Under the pieces are notes generated by a model. That model was not told the DNA's origin. It saw only the letters and a program-made list of their open reading frames with translations, and searched no databases. Of a DNA stretch of 12,930 bases, positions 1,051 to 11,366 are shown piece by piece. The DNA is from a virus (lineage: Duplodnaviria > Heunggongvirae > Uroviricota > Caudoviricetes): the IMG/VR virus record IMGVR_UViG_2675903661_000019, positions 1 through 12,930 of that record. The stretch is one strand, 5' to 3'. Every line of letters starts with the position of its first letter. Positions within the stretch are counted from its first letter, which is position 1. The position numbers were made by a program, and so were the translations under genes.

Positions 1051-2712
1051 TTACACCCCGCTAAATTCTTCCAGTTTCTGGCGGTGGCTGTCGCTTATAT
1101 CAAAAGCAAAATCCTCATGCTCTGCCTGGAATGTACCAAACGCCATCAGCGCCGCTACGCTCGGGTCTATCTTGTTCGGTGATTTTTTCTTGTTCGGCTT
1201 GATATTGGCGTTCGCGTCACTCTGCATCACGACGTTACTCATCGACCAGGACAACACCGGATCGCCACGATGCACAATCACCCTGCGGTTAACAAAAACT
1301 TCGAACGATTTCGCCGCCGGACTGAATCTGAGGTAGGTTTGCGGGAACGGCTCCACCTCAAAACCAGCCCCCTGTAATTGCGTCCTGAGATGCGTGGCGT
1401 TCCACGTATCAAAGCCCACCAGCCTGATATTAAATTTCTCCGCATCCTGCATGATGTCATCTCTGATCCGGTCGTAATCAATGCAGTCACCTGGCGTTGT
1501 GCGTATCCAGCCCGCTTTAGCCCACTGGCGATAGACAGCGCGGTTTTTATTGGCGGGGTTCTGTAGCTGGAACTCCGGCAGATAATGACGGGAAACCAGC
1601 ATGATATTTTTACCGACCGGAAAGGCATAGCACACGCTGGAAATATCGCTGGTTGATGATAAGTCCAGCCCCGCGTAACACTCCTGCCCGTGTAAATCTT
1701 CCTCCGTGAACGTTCCGGCACACTCAGCCCATGCGCCGTTACCCATCCACGGGGTAGCCCCCTGGCACCAGATATTAAATCGCTTTGTCATCATCTCCAC
1801 CCATTGCGACGGAATACCCCGCGCTTTCTGGATGGTTGAGGCCAGTTTTTCACGATCCACGGAAACATCGATGTTAGGGTTAGCCTTTATCCACATCGCC
1901 GGATCATCAACCTCGTTTTCGTCGTCCAGCTCGTAAATCAGCACAAAAATTGAATCGTTGACCTCTTCGCCGTCCAGGATCTGGCAGCAATAATCATAGT
2001 GCTGTTTACAGGTTGAAACGACGTTACTGCCCGATGTGGTAATGGCAAATAACAGCCCTTCGGGACGTGCGCCCATCCCCAGCTCAAGCGCGGAATAAAC
2101 GCCGTTATCGGGGTGTAGGTGGTATTCGTCCACGATGGAAAGGCTGGGGTTTGTTCCCTCGATGGTTGCCGCTTTTGCTGCCAGCGGCTTTAACAGGCTG
2201 TTGCTTTTCGGGTGCATCACCTTGTGGGCCTGAATATTCACCCGCCTGCGTAACGGTCGGGATAAAAGGCACATCTGACGCGCATCATCAAAAACGATCC
2301 GCGCCTGGTCACGGCTCACCGCTGCGGTGTAAATATCCTGCTGCCCGTTCTCCATAATCAGAAACCAGTTAGCCAGAATCGCGGCGGTCGTGGATTTCGC
2401 ATTTTTGCGCGGCACTTCGATAAAGGCGCTCGTGTATTTGCGCCGTCCGGTGGCCTTAACCTTAAAGCCGAGGATGCACGCAAAGGCGAACTGCTGCCAC
2501 GGCTCCAGCTCAATGGGTCTGCCACGCATCGGCCCTTTTACGTGCGGGCACACCCTGGAAAAGGCAATAAACCGCTCCACAACCTCACGATCGAACGTGT
2601 AAAGGGGGCTTTCAAGGTCCGAAAAGTACCGTTTAACGGCCTGTTTCAGCCGTTTACAGGCCGGAATTTTGCCCGTTTTTACGTCTTCTGCGTACTTATT
2701 CCAGGCGGTCAA
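1051..2712 (-). CDS. terL: terminase large subunit (HK97-like, Terminase_1 type)
   Basis: 553-aa ORF; deviant Walker A-like PRKNAKST and Walker B-like LSIVDEYH near the N-terminus, long C-terminal nuclease-size region; apparent TTG start at 2712 with AGAGGA about 5 nt upstream; overlaps terS 3' end by 17 nt. Confidence 0.85.
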   Translation of the reverse strand: MTAWNKYAEDVKTGKIPACKRLKQAVKRYFSDLESPLYTFDREVVERFIAFSRVCPHVKGPMRGRPIELEPWQQFAFACILGFKVKATGRRKYTSAFIEVPRKNAKSTTAAILANWFLIMENGQQDIYTAAVSRDQARIVFDDARQMCLLSRPLRRRVNIQAHKVMHPKSNSLLKPLAAKAATIEGTNPSLSIVDEYHLHPDNGVYSALELGMGARPEGLLFAITTSGSNVVSTCKQHYDYCCQILDGEEVNDSIFVLIYELDDENEVDDPAMWIKANPNIDVSVDREKLASTIQKARGIPSQWVEMMTKRFNIWCQGATPWMGNGAWAECAGTFTEEDLHGQECYAGLDLSSTSDISSVCYAFPVGKNIMLVSRHYLPEFQLQNPANKNRAVYRQWAKAGWIRTTPGDCIDYDRIRDDIMQDAEKFNIRLVGFDTWNATHLRTQLQGAGFEVEPFPQTYLRFSPAAKSFEVFVNRRVIVHRGDPVLSWSMSNVVMQSDANANIKPNKKKSPNKIDPSVAALMAFGTFQAEHEDFAFDISDSHRQKLEEFSGV

Positions 2713-3052
2713 GCTCGTCCTCTTCTTCTGTTTCCGGTGGATTTTTACGGCGGCTTATCGGGTCAAAACCGAGCAAGGAGGCCATTTTTATCATCACTCT
2801 TTCAGCGTCGGATTTTGCGCTTAATGCGGGGTTTCTGCTCTCGCCGCCCTGACTGTTAACAATGATGAACCCGCGCGCCGCAAGGTCTGCAACGGCTTTC
2901 CGGTAAATGGAGTAGTTGACACAATACAGTTCCAGATTGCTCCAGTCGGCGGGGGTCAGGTCTCCCCGTTCCGCAAGCTGCCGCGATTTTTCCCGCCACT
3001 GCTTCACGGCGATATCATCCAGGTAGGCGGGGGCTTTCGGTGGTCTTGCCAT
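2696..3052 (-). CDS. terS: terminase small subunit (P27-like)
   Basis: 118-aa ORF directly upstream of and overlapping terL; N-terminal MARPPKAP and acidic C-terminal tail typical of P27-family small terminases paired with HNH and HK97-type TerL. Confidence 0.75.
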   Translation of the reverse strand: MARPPKAPAYLDDIAVKQWREKSRQLAERGDLTPADWSNLELYCVNYSIYRKAVADLAARGFIIVNSQGGESRNPALSAKSDAERVMIKMASLLGFDPISRRKNPPETEEEDELDRLE

Positions 3053-3120
3053 GCTTATTTTTTCGCCAGATTATTTTTCAAAAAATTCCCGTGCATAAAA
3101 ATTTGAGGAGGCGTTCGGTT

Positions 3121-3170
3121 CTGGGCGGGGTCGGGTTCGTCCTGAAAACTCCCCCCACCCCGTCCGGCTG
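3121..3170. other. candidate cos site region between HNH and terS
   Basis: GC-rich imperfect dyad GGGCGGGGTCGGG ... CCCCCCACCCCG inside the 289-bp non-coding gap between HNH stop (3342) and terS start (3052), the usual cos position in HNH-dependent cos-type HK97-like modules. Confidence 0.3.
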
Positions 3171-3341
3171 CCTCATCAGCGATTGCGGAAACATTCCATA
3201 ACCTCGCGGTCACGGTCGTTTAATCGCGTCGCTGTGATGCGTTCTGCGCGTCCTGATGCTTTATCTTTATGCCCTGTTTCCTGTGCCTTCCATGCGTCAC
3301 GCTGCCTTATAAGTCCACGGATAAGGCGGTTTTGTTCCCGC

Positions 3342-3782
3342 TCATTCATCAGCGCCATACATCCAGTTATTGCGGTTAGCGGCCCGTTCTTCCTCCTCAC
3401 GGAATCCACCCGCAGCACGCTTGTTTTTTGTGGACGGATCAAGCCATTTCGTTTTCTGGTTATGACACGCCTGGCACAATGGCTGATGATTCCACTCAGG
3501 CCAGAAGAGAACATCATTACCGCCATCGATTGGGATAATGTGATCCACCACCACGGCGGGCGTGTATATTCCTTTTTCCAGGCAATGCGCACATAACGGG
3601 TTTTTACTCAGATACATGGCGCGGTATTTCTCCCACTGCCTCGTATACCCTCGCTCCCTGCTGCTGCCTCTCCGGCTGTCCTGCTGCTGGCGTGCGCTGC
3701 GTCTGTGCTCCTCACACTTGCCGGACTTCACGCGCCTGTTGCAGCCTGGTTCTGTACATCGTCTTAATGGTTGCCACGGCAT
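3342..3782 (-). CDS. HNH endonuclease (packaging-associated)
   Basis: 146-aa ORF with Cys-rich N-terminus (CTEPGC, CEEH) and HNH core VVDHIIPIDGGND...LCQACHNQKT; sits upstream of terS as in cos-type HK97-like packaging modules; start overlaps stop of the upstream connector gene. Confidence 0.85.
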   Translation of the reverse strand: MPWQPLRRCTEPGCNRRVKSGKCEEHRRSARQQQDSRRGSSRERGYTRQWEKYRAMYLSKNPLCAHCLEKGIYTPAVVVDHIIPIDGGNDVLFWPEWNHQPLCQACHNQKTKWLDPSTKNKRAAGGFREEEERAANRNNWMYGADE

Positions 3783-4078
3783 CAGTACACCCCCACATCA
3801 CGGTAAGCCGTCCAGAGTGCGCCAATCGTCATGGGTACGTGTGTTTTTGCGTTATCCGCGACAATCTGGCGATTCTCATACAGGTGAGCGATAAACATCA
3901 TGCAGCCAATCTTTATGGCTGGCGTGAACTCCAGCCCGTCATCAAAGCGCCTGCCTATGTGTATCTGGCACGCCTCAAGCGATGCGGCAATGTATCCGCT
4001 GATTAACTGGTCTTCCTCGTCGCCATCGATGCGGCAATGGAGTTTCACTTCTTCCAGGGTGATAAGTTCTTCTGTCAT
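3782..4078 (-). CDS. head-tail connector protein, gp6-like
   Basis: 98-aa ORF beginning MTEELITLEEVKLHCRIDGDEEDQLISGYIAAS, the characteristic N-terminal signature of gp6-like head-tail connector proteins; ATGA start/stop overlap with the upstream gene. Confidence 0.75.
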   Translation of the reverse strand: MTEELITLEEVKLHCRIDGDEEDQLISGYIAASLEACQIHIGRRFDDGLEFTPAIKIGCMMFIAHLYENRQIVADNAKTHVPMTIGALWTAYRDVGVY

Positions 4079-4413
4079 TTTTCCGCGCCCTCACGACAAA
4101 GAATTTCAAGGCGTGTCCTGGCGGCATCCGGCAGCGGCTGCCCGATGATATTCAGTACACGCCCCGCCAGCGGCCCCGTATTGACCTTTATCCGGCTGGT
4201 GGCGTTGATGTCCTTCCGGTACCGTATCCAGATCCTTACGGTACCAATCGCCAGCTCTGCACCCGATGAAATGGCCTCCTTGCTGCTGACCATGTTCACG
4301 CTTGCCCAGAGTGTGTGACCGTCCTCCCACGTTTCGAGTATTTCGCCCGTCATGGCTCTGGTCTGTTTCAGGGTCTGAATCGTTACCCTGTCACGCAGTC
4401 GCCCTATGTTCAT
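4075..4413 (-). CDS. head closure / head-tail joining protein (gp7 or SPP1 gp16-like)
   Basis: ORF extends to 4455, but the internal ATG at 4413 gives MNIGRLRDRVTIQ..., the typical N-terminus for this family, and overlaps the portal stop as ATGA. IRYRKDI and LEILCREG motifs fit head-closure proteins. Start choice is uncertain. Confidence 0.7.
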   Translation of the reverse strand: MNIGRLRDRVTIQTLKQTRAMTGEILETWEDGHTLWASVNMVSSKEAISSGAELAIGTVRIWIRYRKDINATSRIKVNTGPLAGRVLNIIGQPLPDAARTRLEILCREGAEK

Positions 4414-5621
4414 TCCGGTTTTTCTCCCTCGCTGATTTTTACTTCCTGTTTCCATACCTGGCTGAACTCATCACCACCATCACGCGGAGACAACCCTTCT
4501 CGTTCGCGGGCTTCGTTCGGGCACATAACACCGGATTTGATGCCTCGCTCATAGGTGGCAAAGCGTTCGCCAGGTGTGGCCCGTAACAGGTCCGCGCTGT
4601 CAAACTCCACCTGATACCGGATACCAGGTACAGGCGAGACCACCAGCAAGGCGTTTTTTATCTGCTGCTCAAAGTTCGCCAGCCACGGGCGCATCGTCAT
4701 GGTGAGAAATGCGCGGCTTGCCTCGCTGAAATTGCTGTAGGTGCTGTTGCTGTATTCCTGCAGAAAAATCGGCGAGACGTTGAACATTCGGGCGATGTCT
4801 TCAATGGTGAAGCGACGGGAGGCCAGCCATTCGGCGTCCTGGTTACTCATGCCCAGCTGCTGGTAACTCATGCCCCCTTCAAGGATGGGCGTTTTTCCGG
4901 CGTTTCTGGCCCCTTTGTAGCGTTCCAGTGCGGCTAATGCCTGTTTGCCTTTCACGCCGTCCAGCCATTCGCCTGACGTGATAACCCCTGCCGCCATCAT
5001 GCCATCACGCATCACGCTCGCGCCGTGGCGTTGTTGGGCCAGCCCAAGCCCCAGCGATTCGCGGCAGATGGTTACAGGTGAGCGCCCCATAAAGCCGTCA
5101 TCCGTGGAGTAACGAAGGTGAAGTACTTCCCACGGTAAATAGTTGCGGGTGTTTCCGGTGTAGGCGTCAGTGATGCAATAGCGCCAGTTGTGTTCTCCTG
5201 TCTGCTCCACGTTCACCGACTGCGGCGGGTAAGGATGTAAAGCCGCCGGAAAACCATCACGCCCCCACTGAATCACCGCGTAAGCATTACCGTTTAACAG
5301 GCAGTGGCGGATCATCATTCGCTTAAACTGGTAGGGGGTTTGCCATGCGTTCGGGCGCTCGTTGAGGATATGATCGACCGGATGAGAATCAAGCCACTCG
5401 CGGGCCTCCTTCCCCTTCTCATTGCGTACCAGGTACAGGTAGCATGGCATAGTAGCCACCGCCTCAGAGATGACCGTGACGGCGTTCATGACGGCGGGGA
5501 GTGATTCCGCTGTCCCCGATGATACGTACTCACCCGCCCCCGTGTTCGATGTGCCAGCCAGCGCCATAAATTCATCAAGCGTCATGCTGCGCTGCTCTTT
5601 TTTTCTTCTGAAAGGCCACAT
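4410..5621 (-). CDS. portal protein (HK97 family)
   Basis: 403-aa ORF, size and sequence character of HK97-type portals; ATG at 5621 is 1 nt after the protease stop and preceded by GGGGGTG; lies between protease and connector genes. Confidence 0.85.
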   Translation of the reverse strand: MWPFRRKKEQRSMTLDEFMALAGTSNTGAGEYVSSGTAESLPAVMNAVTVISEAVATMPCYLYLVRNEKGKEAREWLDSHPVDHILNERPNAWQTPYQFKRMMIRHCLLNGNAYAVIQWGRDGFPAALHPYPPQSVNVEQTGEHNWRYCITDAYTGNTRNYLPWEVLHLRYSTDDGFMGRSPVTICRESLGLGLAQQRHGASVMRDGMMAAGVITSGEWLDGVKGKQALAALERYKGARNAGKTPILEGGMSYQQLGMSNQDAEWLASRRFTIEDIARMFNVSPIFLQEYSNSTYSNFSEASRAFLTMTMRPWLANFEQQIKNALLVVSPVPGIRYQVEFDSADLLRATPGERFATYERGIKSGVMCPNEAREREGLSPRDGGDEFSQVWKQEVKISEGEKPE

Positions 5622-5622
5622 A

Positions 5623-6180
5623 TCACACCCCCGCTAAATCCGCCCACCAGCGGCGATTATCCGCACGCGGCATTTTTTCGGGGTGCTGCTCATACAGGGA
5701 ACGGCGGGCCAGCTCCACGCCGGAATCGGGGTAAGCCGGTACGGATGTAACGGTAATTTCGTACAGTTCCGCCACCAGCACGGTGCGCACGCATGGATCT
5801 GTTGTGGTATCCCATACATCCTTACGGGAACGAAAGCCAAAGCTCATGCCGGATATATCACCACGTTTAACCAGTTCGATAACGTCACGCCCTGTGCTGG
5901 TATCCGGTGGGGTAAGTTCAAAGCGTAACCCTGTGTCGTCCTCTTCCAGTTTCAGCGTGCCGGAACGGGTGCGCCCCAGTAACATGCTGTGGTCATGCTC
6001 ATACAGGCCGCGAACGTCATTACCCGCCGCAAGCCACTCAGTAAACGCCCCCCGCTGGAATTTTTCGTAAAACTCCCCCCATAACAGTTCCGAAAGGTTA
6101 TCCCAGCGAACAACGTAGCCTGTAAGCGTGTTGCTGGCGCTGGTGGTGATTTCCGATGACCGGATTTCCATACTCTTCAT
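5623..6180 (-). CDS. prohead maturation protease (HK97 gp4-like)
   Basis: ORF is open to 6294, but the ATG at 6180 has GGGTGA about 8 nt upstream and lies after the capsid stop. Protein carries LYEHDHSMLLGRT and GMSFGF motifs typical of HK97-family prohead proteases. Confidence 0.8.
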   Translation of the reverse strand: MKSMEIRSSEITTSASNTLTGYVVRWDNLSELLWGEFYEKFQRGAFTEWLAAGNDVRGLYEHDHSMLLGRTRSGTLKLEEDDTGLRFELTPPDTSTGRDVIELVKRGDISGMSFGFRSRKDVWDTTTDPCVRTVLVAELYEITVTSVPAYPDSGVELARRSLYEQHPEKMPRADNRRWWADLAGV

Positions 6181-6206
6181 AATTTTTTTCACCCATAAAA
6201 CACTAA

Positions 6207-6224
6207 AGGGGCTTTTTAGCCCCT
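6207..6224 (-). promoter_or_regulatory. GC-rich hairpin between capsid and protease genes (possible attenuator)
   Basis: Minus strand AGGGGC-TAAAAA-GCCCCT followed by an interrupted T-rich tract (TTAGTGTTTTA), in the 55-nt gap between capsid stop and protease start. Confidence 0.4.
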
Positions 6225-6235
6225 TCTGTATGCTG

Positions 6236-7393
6236 TTAATCGTCGTCCTGTGGCAGTTCCAGAATCTTGATCGCGTTCGAATCCACCACGCCACCGCCTA
6301 AATATTTTTGCGTGAAAATTTTGATGAATCCTGGTTCTGTCAGGTTGTCCGGTCTGGTGCGAACACCTGTTTCGTGATCAACGATGTAGTAACCGCGTTT
6401 AAAGTCGCCCAGGGCAATAACGTTATCCGGCATAAACTCCAGATATTCGACCGGAAGGCCCAGCAACGTATCAGGATCACCCGCCTGTAAACGGTCACGC
6501 CAGATGTAATCACCGTTCGCGTTCTTCACCTTCTGGAGTTTTGCCGCCGTCGTGGAGTTAACCACCCAGACCGCGTTTTTGCGGTATTTTTTACGTAATG
6601 CAAATTTCAGGTCGATCAGCGGGTCCGCAGATGTCCACGCCAGAGATTCGGAAGGTTTAATTACCTGCAACGTACCAAAATCACGCTCTTTGTCGTTCTT
6701 CTCTGCACGGGGTACGGATAAAAAGCCTTTTGCTTTTTTGTCACCGTCGCCCACAACCAGATCGCTTTCTTCGGTTTCCGTGAAGGTGTCGCCAATCTCG
6801 CCCGTCAGCCATGAAAGGATGTCCACATCGGAAAAATCCACGATTTCCTGCGTGGTGCGCGGGTACGCATAGACCGGATACAGCTTAATGCTCACCTCGT
6901 TAATCTGCGGGGTGCTGGTCTGTTCGCGTGCCTTACCCTCTTCACCGTGGTTAACGGTCGCACCGCCAGCGGAAACAAGCTGCTTAAACTCGTTGCTGCT
7001 GATTTTCTTCACGGTACAGATGCGGCGCATGGTGGATTCATCCGTCAGCATTCGCATGATTTCGGTGTTCAGTTCGGGGATAACGGTATAACCACCATCA
7101 GCGGGAACGCCTGTACTCAATGCGCGGGTTTCACCTGTCAGAATGTAGTGACGTAGTTCGGCGGGGTCAGTGGTCTGGCTGTTTTTGCCTGGTTTACTGC
7201 GCTCTTCGTCAGCAACGGCCTCAAGGCGGGAGATGTCTTTATCGAGTGATTCAGCTTTAGCGCGTAATTCGTCAAATTTTGCGCCCTCAGCATCGTTAAG
7301 ACTGCGGTTTTCTTTTTCCGCGTTCTCCAGCATGTCGCGCATCTGATTTTTAATGGCGGTTTTCTGCTGGCGTAATTCGATTATTCTCGGCAT
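6236..7393 (-). CDS. major capsid protein (HK97 fold) with N-terminal coiled-coil delta/scaffold-like region
   Basis: 385-aa ORF; charged, coiled-coil-like first ~70 aa (EKENRSLNDAEGAKFDELRAKAESLDKDISRLEAVADEE) followed by a capsid-size body; ATG at 7393. Confidence 0.85.
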   Translation of the reverse strand: MPRIIELRQQKTAIKNQMRDMLENAEKENRSLNDAEGAKFDELRAKAESLDKDISRLEAVADEERSKPGKNSQTTDPAELRHYILTGETRALSTGVPADGGYTVIPELNTEIMRMLTDESTMRRICTVKKISSNEFKQLVSAGGATVNHGEEGKAREQTSTPQINEVSIKLYPVYAYPRTTQEIVDFSDVDILSWLTGEIGDTFTETEESDLVVGDGDKKAKGFLSVPRAEKNDKERDFGTLQVIKPSESLAWTSADPLIDLKFALRKKYRKNAVWVVNSTTAAKLQKVKNANGDYIWRDRLQAGDPDTLLGLPVEYLEFMPDNVIALGDFKRGYYIVDHETGVRTRPDNLTEPGFIKIFTQKYLGGGVVDSNAIKILELPQDDD

Positions 7394-8050: not shown

Positions 8051-8299
8051 CTACTCAGCTAATTTGCTCAGCCCCATGTCTGCATAAGTGCGATTTACTG
8101 CATTTCTCAGGTCTGCGTAGTTCTCCGTTGGCGGCTCCGGTGGCCTCTGTGCCTTCCTGGAACATTCCAGCCGTCGCATCGTAACCTGATGCCGTTCCTT
8201 GTCTATCTCCACCAGTTGCATGACTTCACCCCATCGCGCCGACGCCCTCCGGTAAAAGCCTTTTGCCTCGAGTTCCTCCGCTATGCGGTCATGTACCAT
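8051..8299 (-). CDS. hypothetical protein (82 aa)
   Basis: ATG at 8299 is preceded by GAGGGGG, which overlaps the SSB stop codon (TGAGGGGGTGACGATG); ORF ends at 8051 and is followed by an intrinsic terminator. The longer track ORF (to 8419) would overlap SSB by 110 nt. No family recognised. Confidence 0.5.
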   Translation of the reverse strand: MVHDRIAEELEAKGFYRRASARWGEVMQLVEIDKERHQVTMRRLECSRKAQRPPEPPTENYADLRNAVNRTYADMGLSKLAE

Positions 8300-8309
8300 C
8301 GTCACCCCC

Positions 8310-8720
8310 TCAGAACGGAATACCGTCACCGTAAGGGTCATCGCCTCCCGCTGGTGGCTGATTACCCTGTGTGCCTGTGGTTTTGCGTCTGTTCCCGCCA
8401 GGACGTGCCGCACGGGCACTGATTACGCTGTCTGCAATAACCTGATAACCCTGCCGCGTTTCCCCGTTCTGTCCGGTCCACTGGCTGACCTGCATCGTGC
8501 CGGATACGCTGGCAACGTCGCCTTTTTGATGTTTAGCCAGGAAGTCGGCCTGCTTACCAAATGCGATGACCGATAGCCATAACGTAGCCTGCCCATCCTG
8601 CGCCTGACTACATGGCAACGATACCGCCATACGTGCCAGCGTCATTGGTGTGCCCTTGCTGGTCTGTTTTACCTGCGGGTCGTCCACCAGCCGCCCGTAA
8701 GCTGCTATCTGTGCTGTCAT
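8310..8720 (-). CDS. ssb: single-stranded DNA-binding protein (SSB-like)
   Basis: 136-aa ORF; OB-fold-like core alignable by eye to E. coli SSB (conserved Trp in SQWTGQNG matching RKWTDQSG), Gly/Pro-rich linker and C-terminal acidic tip DDPYGDGIPF resembling the SSB DDDIPF tail; ATGA overlap with the upstream gene. Confidence 0.75.
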   Translation of the reverse strand: MTAQIAAYGRLVDDPQVKQTSKGTPMTLARMAVSLPCSQAQDGQATLWLSVIAFGKQADFLAKHQKGDVASVSGTMQVSQWTGQNGETRQGYQVIADSVISARAARPGGNRRKTTGTQGNQPPAGGDDPYGDGIPF

Positions 8721-9031
8721 GATTCCACCTCTCCGGTTTTAACGTTGATGGTTGTTACCTGTTCCGCTTCGGCAATCTCCCGTTCTGTCAGCGTGGCAAA
8801 GTTTGCCGCCGCCGTGGTCATGAATGCGCTTATCAGGTCGGGATGTTCCTTCGCGTATCCTTCCCGCGTGTGGCGGTCTATCGTTCTGATTGCCACCTTT
8901 AAGGTGTGCTCAGTCATGTCTAACGCTTTATATTTTGGCTCTGTTCTGTCTCTGCGAATTTTGGTCATTTGTCGCCCCTGATTCATGTTTTCGGCTGGCA
9001 TGTTTGTTAAGTGATTTTGATGTATGCGCAT
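8717..9031 (-). CDS. hypothetical protein (104 aa)
   Basis: ATG at 9031 preceded by GAGGGGG about 9 nt upstream; first gene downstream of the iteron region; translationally coupled to SSB. No family recognised. Confidence 0.5.
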   Translation of the reverse strand: MRIHQNHLTNMPAENMNQGRQMTKIRRDRTEPKYKALDMTEHTLKVAIRTIDRHTREGYAKEHPDLISAFMTTAAANFATLTEREIAEAEQVTTINVKTGEVES

Positions 9032-9078
9032 TTATTTTCACCCCCTCGTTTAAAAAGTTTTTAGTTGTGCCTCCCCCC

Positions 9079-9302
9079 CCTCTACCCATCTACCCGAATG
9101 CTCATCATGTCAGTAATGGCGCGGCTTTCAGCGGGTAGATAGCTTTTTGGGCTCCTCTACCTGCCGTCTACCCTGCTACCTGAAACTGATAAAATCAGGT
9201 AGAAGAGGTAGAGAGCTTTTATTAGCCTTCTACCTGGCCCTCTACCCACTTATCATGTTGAATAATATGTATTTATTTCATTCAGGTAGATGGGGTAGAG
9301 GG
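9079..9302. repeat. iteron array, candidate origin of replication
   Basis: About 12 copies of CCTCTACCC / GGGTAGAGG-type motifs (core TCTACC / GGTAGA) in both orientations within ~220 bp, interspersed with AT-rich stretches (9250-9283), directly downstream of the primase stop at 9316. Confidence 0.7.
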
Positions 9303-9315
9303 CTTTTACAAAAAA

Positions 9316-11070
9316 TTATAAAAACGCGTCGCAATCGTCTGTTGTAATTGCGTTGGTCTGCGTTACTCCCTTAACTTTTCGCGTAATATATTCATGCCCG
9401 TAAACTTTCGCCGCTGGCTTCATGGCCTTGCTGAACTCAGCCACGTTTAGCGGTTTGCTCCTGCCTGCGTATGCCATAAACGCCAGATAGACGCGGTAAA
9501 GGCTGTTCCTGGTCGTGTACTTCACTGAATCGCCACCGCCCCCCATCATCAGGCCGCGCGCTTCCTCCAGAAAATTCAGGAACTGGCAAAACTCAATAAC
9601 CGGATCCGTCTGTTGCTTTATTGCCAGTGCTTCATCACCGTCACGCTGTTCCAGTAGTAAAGCCCGTGCCTTCTCAGGGTCGGTAAAGTTCGCCAGCAAG
9701 CGGCGGATAATAACGGGGATTTCAGCCGCAATCTTTTCCGGTAGTTCCCTGTCTTTTTCGGCCTCACTGACGATATTGTCGAAACGGAAAATCACGCGAC
9801 GACGTGCCACACCTCCGGCCCGTTCGGTGAATATCATCGGGTTATTGTTGGTCGCCAGCACCACCGCCCTGATTACAGCCGTGAAACGCTTTTCGTATTT
9901 CGGGTTAATTTCCACGGGGTCACCGCCCGTGATTTTCTTGATGCCCGTTCCTTCGCCTGTATATTTCGGCTGGTCAGCCAGGACGATAAGACGACTCCCG
10001 ACAACCTGCGCACGTCCACCAGCATCATCAAGCGATGTCATTTCAGCGCTTACCGTGTTCTGTTTCCCTGCCAGAAGGCTGGCTATGTGTGTGAATGTAC
10101 TTTTACCGCTCCCGCCGTCTCCGGTGGCCTCAATAAACATCTGCCAGTCGTACCGGTTCGCCATAATCATGTACAGCGCGGCACATATACGCATCATCTT
10201 GCGCGGGTCTTTTCCGGCTGCGTGCTCAAGCCATTTATGAAAGTTTGGCGCGTTATCGCGGATGTTCTCCCCTGGTGCTGGTGGCGTGTACTCAATACCG
10301 TTGTGCGTGGTGATCCAGTTCTCCGGCGTGTGCGGGGAAAATTCCCCCGTTTTCAGGTCAAGCGCACCATTGGCAAACGGCAGCAAATCGCCGGACGGCT
10401 CGCCCATTGGTTCGGCAATAACTTTTAACGCTTCCACGGCGTTATTGATTACGCGCTTGCTGAAAGTGGCCCTGTGCTCTGAATAGATCGCCACCATTTC
10501 GCGGCTAAGTTCCATTGTACTGACCGGACACCATACCCCGCCGCGCCATACGTGGACGATTTCACTTTCAGGATGTACGCAAATGCCATCAAAGCGCCCG
10601 GCAAGCAGCTGCGCGCGCTCACTGTCCGCCATCTGCGAAAGTTGTGCCTTTTGCTTTACCGGAAGCTCAATGACCAGACCATCAGAAAGATTCTGGCGCT
10701 CACGGGCCAGATATTCGCGCCAGTTCTCCACCTTCTGAACGTGCATTCCCTCAGGGTAAAAATTTGCATCCTGTACGCCTGCCGCCGCCAGTTTCTGACC
10801 AATCGCCTTGATCATTACTGGCTCAAGATGTCCGGCCCTGAATATGCGTACTGATTTTCTGCCTTCCGGCACAATTTGCAGCTTATCCAGTTCGGATAAC
10901 TGCTGCTCCCCAAGCCACACAGGAGGCTCATTATCTCCGGCCATACGCGCGTCATGTTCCTGCCATTGTTTTGCGTGTGACCAGGCATCACTACCCGCAA
11001 AAATAATGACTTCTGTTTCTTTGTGTTTTATGCCGCGTGACTGCTGTTTTACGTTCGGTGCCAGTTTCAT
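9316..11070 (-). CDS. primase/helicase, P4-alpha / D5-like (satellite Pri-Rep type)
   Basis: 584-aa ORF with central P-loop NTPase Walker A GDGGSGKST and Walker B-like LIVLAD, N-terminal primase-like region; ATGA overlap with the upstream 99-aa gene; iteron-rich AT-containing region begins right at its stop. Confidence 0.8.
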   Translation of the reverse strand: MKLAPNVKQQSRGIKHKETEVIIFAGSDAWSHAKQWQEHDARMAGDNEPPVWLGEQQLSELDKLQIVPEGRKSVRIFRAGHLEPVMIKAIGQKLAAAGVQDANFYPEGMHVQKVENWREYLARERQNLSDGLVIELPVKQKAQLSQMADSERAQLLAGRFDGICVHPESEIVHVWRGGVWCPVSTMELSREMVAIYSEHRATFSKRVINNAVEALKVIAEPMGEPSGDLLPFANGALDLKTGEFSPHTPENWITTHNGIEYTPPAPGENIRDNAPNFHKWLEHAAGKDPRKMMRICAALYMIMANRYDWQMFIEATGDGGSGKSTFTHIASLLAGKQNTVSAEMTSLDDAGGRAQVVGSRLIVLADQPKYTGEGTGIKKITGGDPVEINPKYEKRFTAVIRAVVLATNNNPMIFTERAGGVARRRVIFRFDNIVSEAEKDRELPEKIAAEIPVIIRRLLANFTDPEKARALLLEQRDGDEALAIKQQTDPVIEFCQFLNFLEEARGLMMGGGGDSVKYTTRNSLYRVYLAFMAYAGRSKPLNVAEFSKAMKPAAKVYGHEYITRKVKGVTQTNAITTDDCDAFL

Positions 11071-11366
11071 TTTTTACCCCTGAATCCGTTAATCATGGTT
11101 TTCAGCTTCTGGATGTTTTCCCGTGCTCTGGCGTTGCTGGTGGGCACGTTATGCGGCGCGGTCTGTACCAGAGAAAAATCACGCCGGAACTGATAAACAG
11201 GCATCACGCAATCATATTCGTAACCTTCACGGCGGTAAGTTACGCACCGTCCCGCCACACCCTTAATCATTACCGTGCCGCCGTACTGGTCGCGGTAAAT
11301 ATCACCGCGCGTAAATTTAGGGTGAGTGTTGCCACTGGCAGTTAAGCCAGAATATTTAAGTTTCAT
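11067..11366 (-). CDS. hypothetical protein (99 aa)
   Basis: ATG at 11366 with GGAGA about 9 nt upstream; stop overlaps the primase start; position resembles small early genes that precede primase in P4-like elements. No family recognised. Confidence 0.5.
   Translation of the reverse strand: MKLKYSGLTASGNTHPKFTRGDIYRDQYGGTVMIKGVAGRCVTYRREGYEYDCVMPVYQFRRDFSLVQTAPHNVPTSNARARENIQKLKTMINGFRGKK

Follow-up and report, generated by a model that had tools for sequence, protein, structure and literature searches.

An array of short repeats directly 3′ of the 'primase' gene of a capsid-forming phage-inducible chromosomal island (cf-PICI) is very probably the replication origin of that island, the plasmid tests behind this reading having been performed by others on the CFT073 allele. 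The array lies in a window of 12,930 bp, by which we mean the whole stretch of DNA analyzed. A first-pass annotation had proposed that an iteron array following the primase gene serves as its origin, and the proposal is well supported: the array aligns with the experimentally tested origin of the island EcCICFT073, whose initiator protein, Pri-Rep, is 98% identical to that of the window (573 of 584 residues). Fillol-Salom et al. (2018; PMC6092414) have already described and tested an origin that shares this motif and layout and has a near-identical initiator, and the reading is not new. Our results confirm that a satellite origin can be recognized correctly by reading nothing but the sequence, and provide exact origin coordinates for this island, with little added biologically. 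Beyond the 2018 description are a conserved block that is not an iteron, a replicon common to a cf-PICI and the classical PICI EcCICFT073, and a TOPRIM-like N-terminal domain of Pri-Rep in which conserved acidic residues are missing. Possible uses lie in the design of satellite-based vectors and in predicting the replicon compatibility of co-resident islands.

The gene content of the window is that of a cf-PICI (bioRxiv 10.1101/2022.09.08.507074), consisting of satellite genes and an operon for the island's own capsid and packaging, tail and lysis genes being absent; all of the large genes are carried on the minus strand (Table 1). Related full islands carry an integrase and an HTH regulator beyond their pri-rep side, and the integrase of the present island would fall outside the window or at its edge. 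At least 80% of the window is present in 129 E. coli genomes. The gap that follows the primase, put at 285 bp by the first-pass annotation, measures 284 bp from the primase stop codon (9316–9318) to the ATG at 9031 of the next small ORF, both genes being on the minus strand. Open reading frames predicted within the array had been dismissed as implausible, which fits the absence of any annotated feature from the homologous stretch in 30 of 30 RefSeq E. coli genomes among the matches listed.

The small ORF downstream of the origin (8717–9031, minus strand; PHROG 1231) has an inconsistent start in RefSeq. It begins at the equivalent of window position 9031 in CFT073, 2014C-4135, and KY203, and 63 nt further in (8968) in ST130 and O157, so that the apparent intergenic length is 284 bp in the former and 347 bp in the latter. 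The E. coli ST130 locus (L001) has the origin closest to that of the window (99.6%), and its primase gene (11285–13040) is annotated as a frameshifted pseudogene; this island may therefore be unable to replicate despite an intact origin.

Table 1. Features of the window, in order of position. On the plus strand, '>' denotes TCTACC and '<' denotes GGTAGA.
Feature	Position	Strand	Remarks
TerL	1051–2712	−	
TerS	2696–3052	−	
HNH endonuclease	3342–3782	−	
Head-tail connector and head completion proteins	3782–4455	−	
Portal	4410–5621	−	
Prohead protease	5623–6294	−	
HK97-type major capsid protein	6236–7393	−	
PerC	8051–8419	−	
SSB	8310–8720	−	
Whole intergenic origin region	9032–9315		From primase stop to next gene start; matches the EcCICFT073 delta-ori deletion
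Distal group	'>>' 9081, 9089; '<' 9134		Spacer 39 bp, 46% A+T
Iteron pair 1, primase-distal end	9081–9094 (GGTAGA 9081–9086, 9089–9094)	−	Present in 6 of 6 origin variants
Non-iteron block CAGTAATGGCGCGGCTTTCAG	9111–9131		Follows iteron pair 1, precedes the single inverted iteron
Single inverted iteron, closing the distal group	9134–9139	+	Invariant across origin variants
Middle group	'>>>' 9156, 9167, 9175; '<<' 9198, 9207		Spacer 17 bp, 76% A+T
Iteron triplet	9156–9180 (GGTAGA 9156, 9167; GGTAGC 9175)	−	First two invariant; third of the window type only
Short spacer of the middle dyad	9181–9197		76% A+T
Iteron pair opposite the triplet	9198–9212 (9198–9203, 9207–9212)	+	Invariant across origin variants
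Proximal group, by the primase stop	'>>' 9229, 9241; '<<' 9285, 9294		Spacer 37 bp, 78% A+T
Iteron pair left of the AT-rich spacer	9229–9246 (9229–9234, 9241–9246)	−	
AT-rich spacer	9247–9283		37 bp, 78% A+T; candidate DNA-unwinding element
Iteron pair by the primase stop, opposite the 9229/9241 pair	9285–9299 (9285–9290, 9294–9299)	+	Invariant
Pri-Rep ('primase')	9316–11070	−	
DUF4222 protein	11067–11366	−	

On the two strands of the 12,930-bp window together, the hexamer GGTAGA/TCTACC has 11 exact copies, all of them within 9081–9299, in good agreement with the 9079–9302 originally assigned to the array. The original count of about 12 copies likewise stands, as a GGTAGC variant at 9175–9180 makes a twelfth iteron. 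Including its flanks, the iteron has the consensus ~RGGTAGAnGG, and the array starts 17 bp past the primase stop codon. Dinucleotide-preserving shuffles of the whole window contain 2.96 ± 1.6 copies of GGTAGA, with none of 200 shuffles reaching 11, and the Poisson probability of encountering at least 11 copies within 224 bp is ~1.5e-22. Readings in which the repeats represent a chance cluster, a REP/BIME-like host repeat, or a cos/pac packaging site deserve almost no credence; the presence of short inverted repeats is all that speaks for them, and they are contradicted by the shuffles, by a context in which the element always follows the initiator gene, and by its distribution. Of 5426 E. coli genomes, only 131 contain the 284-bp intergenic sequence; the median copy number is one, every copy is chromosomal with none on plasmids, and the phage collection yields no match. 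At the loci inspected it is always placed between the primase gene and the small ORF followed by ssb, within an integrase-bearing satellite island. Chance and a host repeat are rejected on the grounds of shuffles, copy number, and context, and the circumstance that the first-pass annotation had named as fatal to its proposal, a widespread host repetitive element, is not what these genomes contain.

The iterons are organized as three adjacent convergent dyad groups, distal, middle, and proximal to the primase stop, and the initial description of a motif in both orientations is therefore correct. That description also spoke of nested dyads. Dyads are indeed present, together with numerous additional long-range inverted iteron pairs, but three adjacent dyads fit the arrangement better than nesting does. 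The AT-rich stretches noted at the outset correspond to the proximal and middle spacers, whose A+T contents of 78% and 76%, respectively, compare with 48% for the window as a whole; 30-mers that start at ~9240–9260 and span most of the proximal spacer rank within the 40 least stable of the 12.9-kb window. The region thus displays the attributes of a Gram-negative PICI origin, namely, a location directly 3′ of pri-rep, iterons that face each other across an AT-rich spacer, and homology to an origin that has been tested. Because its iterons are inverted, the dyad at 9152–9214 can fold into a hairpin far beyond what shuffles achieve (z −5.1 and −4.1). A structured RNA was considered and rejected: nothing reached the Rfam gathering score, and two sub-threshold matches to miRNA families arise artefactually from the hairpin that the inverted iterons form.

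In the work on EcCICFT073, the region directly 3′ of the PICI initiator gene was identified as the origin, with two sets of iterons around an AT-rich region (PMC6092414). The pri-ori segment of this island keeps a temperature-sensitive plasmid at 44 °C, and a rep mutant yields zero colonies; deletion of the origin reduces colony numbers significantly without abolishing them, an incomplete effect that counts against the origin reading (PMC6092414). The published primers allow these constructs to be placed on the sequence. Primer EcoCFT073-pri-4c, which reads ...TCAGGTAGACAGGGTAGACAGCC...ATTATAAAAACGC (PMC6092414), is the counterpart of window 9282–9328 and contains the 9285/9294 iteron pair. 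On the CFT073 locus that was compared with the window (L003), primer rep-3cNotI maps to 9045–9065, rep-2cNotI to 8741–8758, and rep-1m upstream of the gene, while the CFT073 iterons, 11 in number, are all located at 8811–9032. From these primer positions, the published origin deletion therefore comprises exactly the intergenic region with all 11 CFT073 iterons, equivalent to approximately 9030–9311 of the window.

The origins of the window and CFT073 are 66% identical with the order of iterons kept, compared with 98% for their initiator proteins. When six origin variants are aligned, invariant columns make up 52 of 72 iteron-core positions versus 61 of 152 others (Fisher p = 8e-6); the former figure is too low, as the alignment places one iteron a base out of register. 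The two origins have in common their position directly 3′ of pri-rep, the GGTAGA iteron (present in the paper's own primer), the order of the iteron groups, and an AT-rich spacer between facing iterons. They differ close to that spacer, where the window has two '>' iterons and CFT073 has one, preceded by an extra GGTAGA in the opposite orientation, as well as in the middle group, where the GGTAGC third copy is of the window type and unlike CFT073. The identity of 66% and the differences in iteron number and orientation near the AT-rich spacer count against equating the window's origin with the tested one. The window island is capsid-forming (TerL, TerS, HNH, portal, protease, and HK97-type capsid), whereas EcCICFT073 is a classical PICI; that a cf-PICI and a classical PICI share a near-identical initiator suggests, on comparison of their sequences, that the replication module has been exchanged between satellite families. 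The morphogenesis modules themselves (window 1051–7393 and L003 4390–7582) differ, with Pri-Rep nonetheless 98% identical.

Pri-Rep is a protein of 584 aa (gene 9316–11070, minus strand) with a TOPRIM-like N-terminal region (residues 1–135), a D5_N and SF3 helicase core (~154–470), and a C-terminal origin-binding region (~488–576). Pfam assigns D5_N to residues 154–282, DUF5906 (SF3 P-loop) to 316–417, and, at its cutoff score, Pox_D5 to 487–575. Among PDB sequences, residues 195–432 match 7OLA (E = 3.6e-15), an entry confirmed to be the cryo-EM structure of SaPI5 PriRep5. The same entry is the best structural match found by Foldseek (E = 8e-19) for a full-length AlphaFold (AF2) model of mean pLDDT 89, and is followed by the poxvirus D5/E5 helicases. 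Pfam, the sequence match to 7OLA, and Foldseek concur in identifying an SF3 (D5-like) helicase. Residues 488–576 match PDB 1KA8 (E = 8e-6), which was deposited as a "putative P4-specific DNA primase" and which we take as the P4 alpha origin-binding domain; this match, Pfam Pox_D5, and co-variation with the class of iteron, described below, all indicate a C-terminal winged-helix origin-binding domain. At the sequence level, no catalytic domain of a primase could be detected in Pri-Rep, and searches with the N-terminal 160 residues gave no match. A weak TOPRIM lead for the N-terminal domain comes from fold comparison only, and the conserved acidic residues are missing. Catalytically, the 'primase' portion of Pri-Rep may have degenerated, and the tie between protein and DNA most likely consists of the C-terminal origin-binding domain and the SF3 helicase rather than primase chemistry.

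The association between initiator and array was examined across a broader range of relatives. The top 120 proteins listed in the search for homologs were all near-identical E. coli sequences, and the diversity alignment was drawn from a 50%-representative search instead. A profile of 23 diverse relatives led to 80 loci from other species, 77 of which had a readable stop and enough downstream DNA. In the 400 bp that follow the stop, 42 of these 77 loci repeat a hexamer 6–13 times, compared with at most 5 in control 400-bp windows inside the genes. The remaining 35 have no hexamer repeated at least six times within 400 bp after the gene, so that a gene-adjacent position is not universal in the family, which counts against the origin reading; these loci may have their origin elsewhere, or may employ different, longer degenerate sites. 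The array-less loci are mostly from Xenorhabdus, Photorhabdus, Proteus, and Yersinia (L037–L050, L052–L058, L061–L070, L073–L079, L084).

Several classes of motif can be distinguished among the loci with arrays. A GGTAGA class accounts for 15 loci (Shigella, Rosenbergiella, Xenorhabdus, Symbiopectobacterium, Tolumonas, Yersinia, Raoultella, Kluyvera, E. ruysiae), a GGTAGG class for 5, and a TGAACA/GGTGAACA class for 18, with singleton motifs (GGTATAC, CAGTGC, and others) in a few more; GGTGAACA is the complement of TGTTCACC, annotated as the "ori type 1 repeat" in the record of phage P4. All motif classes have a common layout. Read in the orientation of the gene, the stop is followed by '<<', a spacer, '>', ~20 nt, '<<<', and a second spacer, and then by '>>>', ~20 nt, '<', a block of ~37 nt, '>>', and finally AAAACTTT. 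The C-terminal domain (488–576) has a median identity of 51% in pairs of the same class and 34% in pairs of different classes, a large contrast, for which p-values are indicative only because locus pairs are not independent; identity in the helicase core is 63% both within and between classes. As judged from these identities, motif class (GGTAGA, GGTAGG, and the P4-type TGTTCACC) tracks the C-terminal domain and not the helicase domain. Such co-variation is expected if the domain reads the iteron, and if domain and origin are inherited or exchanged as a unit. It suggests that the C-terminal domain of the initiator determines iteron specificity, and the domain-plus-origin unit appears to be interchangeable among classical PICIs, capsid-forming PICIs, and P4-like elements.

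The Reps of the SaPIs provide the closest parallel at the level of the helicase, PriRep5 (7OLA) being the best match to the helicase region of Pri-Rep in both sequence and fold. They are self-loading helicases whose C-terminal winged-helix domain recognizes iterons of 5–6 nt located just after the rep ORF, and in their origins at least two iterons per side flank a central AT-rich region in opposite directions, where two hexamers are proposed to load, one per side (PMC9371898). Both systems thus combine 6–12 short iterons after the rep ORF with an initiator composed of a helicase and a C-terminal winged-helix domain (PMC9371898), and by this analogy the anatomy of the array fits the two-sided loading model directly. 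Differences are nevertheless apparent: identity in the structural alignment is ~17%, the iteron sequence is another one, and a single pair of iteron sets in the SaPIs contrasts with three dyad groups plus a conserved non-iteron block here.

A plausible course of initiation can be outlined. A helper phage would induce the island, leading to expression of the upstream Pri-Rep gene. The product, in all likelihood a hexameric helicase of the SF3 (D5-like) type that carries the winged-helix origin-binding domain at its C terminus, would read the ~9-bp iteron RGGTAGAnGG through that domain. As the iterons form convergent groups, Pri-Rep assemblies are proposed on both sides of a spacer; in the proximal group, the 37-bp spacer (9247–9283) would melt first, and the helicase would load itself there from two sides without a separate loader, whereupon the host replisome would copy the excised circle. 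The binding of GGTAGA by the C-terminal domain, the two-sided loading, and the melting at 9247–9283 are steps that we infer by analogy with SaPI Rep and P4 alpha.

In iteron plasmids such as pSC101, R6K, and RK2, the sites for the initiator also adjoin an AT-rich unwinding element and the initiator gene, and the array has in common with them repeated sites next to both. Plasmid Rep proteins are not helicases, relying instead on the host DnaA, DnaB, and DnaC for loading, and their iterons are usually direct repeats of 17–22 bp; here, by contrast, an SF3 helicase serves as the initiator, and the convergent iterons measure ~9 bp.

Phage P4 offers a second parallel, and with it the most serious rival to the origin reading. 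P4 alpha, of 777 aa, is described as an active primase, and the C-terminal domain of Pri-Rep is homologous to 1KA8, with the E value given above. No citable source for the P4 iteron sequence was found in the literature search, and the annotated GenBank record of P4 (NC_001609) was used. It has iteron clusters at 4291–4590 and 9310–9413, and its short iterons, in both orientations, likewise come directly after the initiator gene. Many relatives of Pri-Rep carry the P4 motif TGTTCACC in the layout of the array; the motif in the window is GGTAGA, and the C-terminal domain is 28–35% identical to those of TGTTCACC-type relatives. The type-1 iterons that cluster right behind the alpha stop are crr according to the P4 record, which places the origin 4.5 kb away. 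The array could on this precedent be a crr-like auxiliary cis element that binds the initiator and stimulates replication initiated elsewhere in the island, the more so as one P4 crr repeat partly resembles the array in having two iterons, a T-rich spacer, and inverted iterons. P4, however, needs two separate cis elements, ori and crr, and the islands studied here have one cluster. Each of three full-length islands contains a single GGTAGA cluster, with 2–3 scattered single copies per 18–22 kb, and the window is devoid of GGTAGA outside 9081–9299, that is, of a second crr-like cluster; a bipartite origin of the P4 type was accordingly found neither in the window nor in the three complete islands. 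Furthermore, the pri-ori fragment of EcCICFT073 by itself maintained a plasmid (PMC6092414). An auxiliary role with initiation elsewhere is thus very unlikely, and the array is better regarded as the origin itself.

The array is also directly upstream of the next gene and is followed by an element, AAAACTTTT with a run of G, that is conserved in many loci. Since plasmid iterons often autoregulate transcription as well, the repeats might conceivably act mainly as an operator or promoter for the downstream operon (small ORF, ssb, perC, and capsid genes), under the initiator or another regulator. Consensus scans of both strands of 8700–9500 revealed no sigma-70-like promoter and no intrinsic terminator, and the iteron motif co-varies with the origin-binding domain of the initiator, neither of which would favor such a function. 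Islands of this type have moreover been described as transcribed in one direction, and deletion of the homologous region impairs plasmid maintenance (PMC6092414). A mainly transcriptional role is on this evidence most improbable, although a secondary regulatory function alongside replication is possible.

Returning to the origin itself, the distal group encloses the non-iteron block CAGTAATGGCGCGGCTTTCAG, which is identical in five E. coli origin variants and has one mismatch in a Shigella locus (L006), even though the overall identity of the variants to the window is only 66–79%. The core of the block, GCCGCGCCATTACTG, recurs with position and orientation preserved in eight loci from other genera, including Raoultella, Yersinia, Symbiopectobacterium, and Buttiauxella, 192–258 nt after the primase stop. 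One of the eight, an Aeromonas tecta locus (L085), has an exact 15/15 match to GCCGCGCCATTACTG, though its iteron is CAGTGC. Promoter and terminator signals were looked for in the 9111–9131 block and none was found; nor is there a sign of an extra hairpin at this position, the single-strand fold of 9079–9141 being no better than those of shuffles (z −1.5 and −0.5). We tentatively raise the possibility, itself somewhat doubtful, that the block with its core GCCGCGCCATTACTG constitutes a second, iteron-independent recognition element of the origin. Were this the case, the element might be bound by a factor from the host or the helper phage, or might serve as a signal for priming; the latter would be required if Pri-Rep's degenerate TOPRIM domain has no activity. 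The block and the swappable pair of C-terminal domain and iteron would then together define replication-specificity groups among PICIs, cf-PICIs, and P4-like satellites.

The array is in turn bracketed by inverted elements in many related loci (L012, L013, L022, L031, L032, L066, L071, and L075; window 9040–9078 and 9303–9315). A run of C with AAAGTTTT near the primase stop and AAAACTTTT with the run of G at the far end form an inverted pair, and the whole origin therefore has the appearance of a symmetric cassette. The far-end copy in the window, GTTTAAAAAGTTTT at 9048–9061, is invariant among the E. coli variants.
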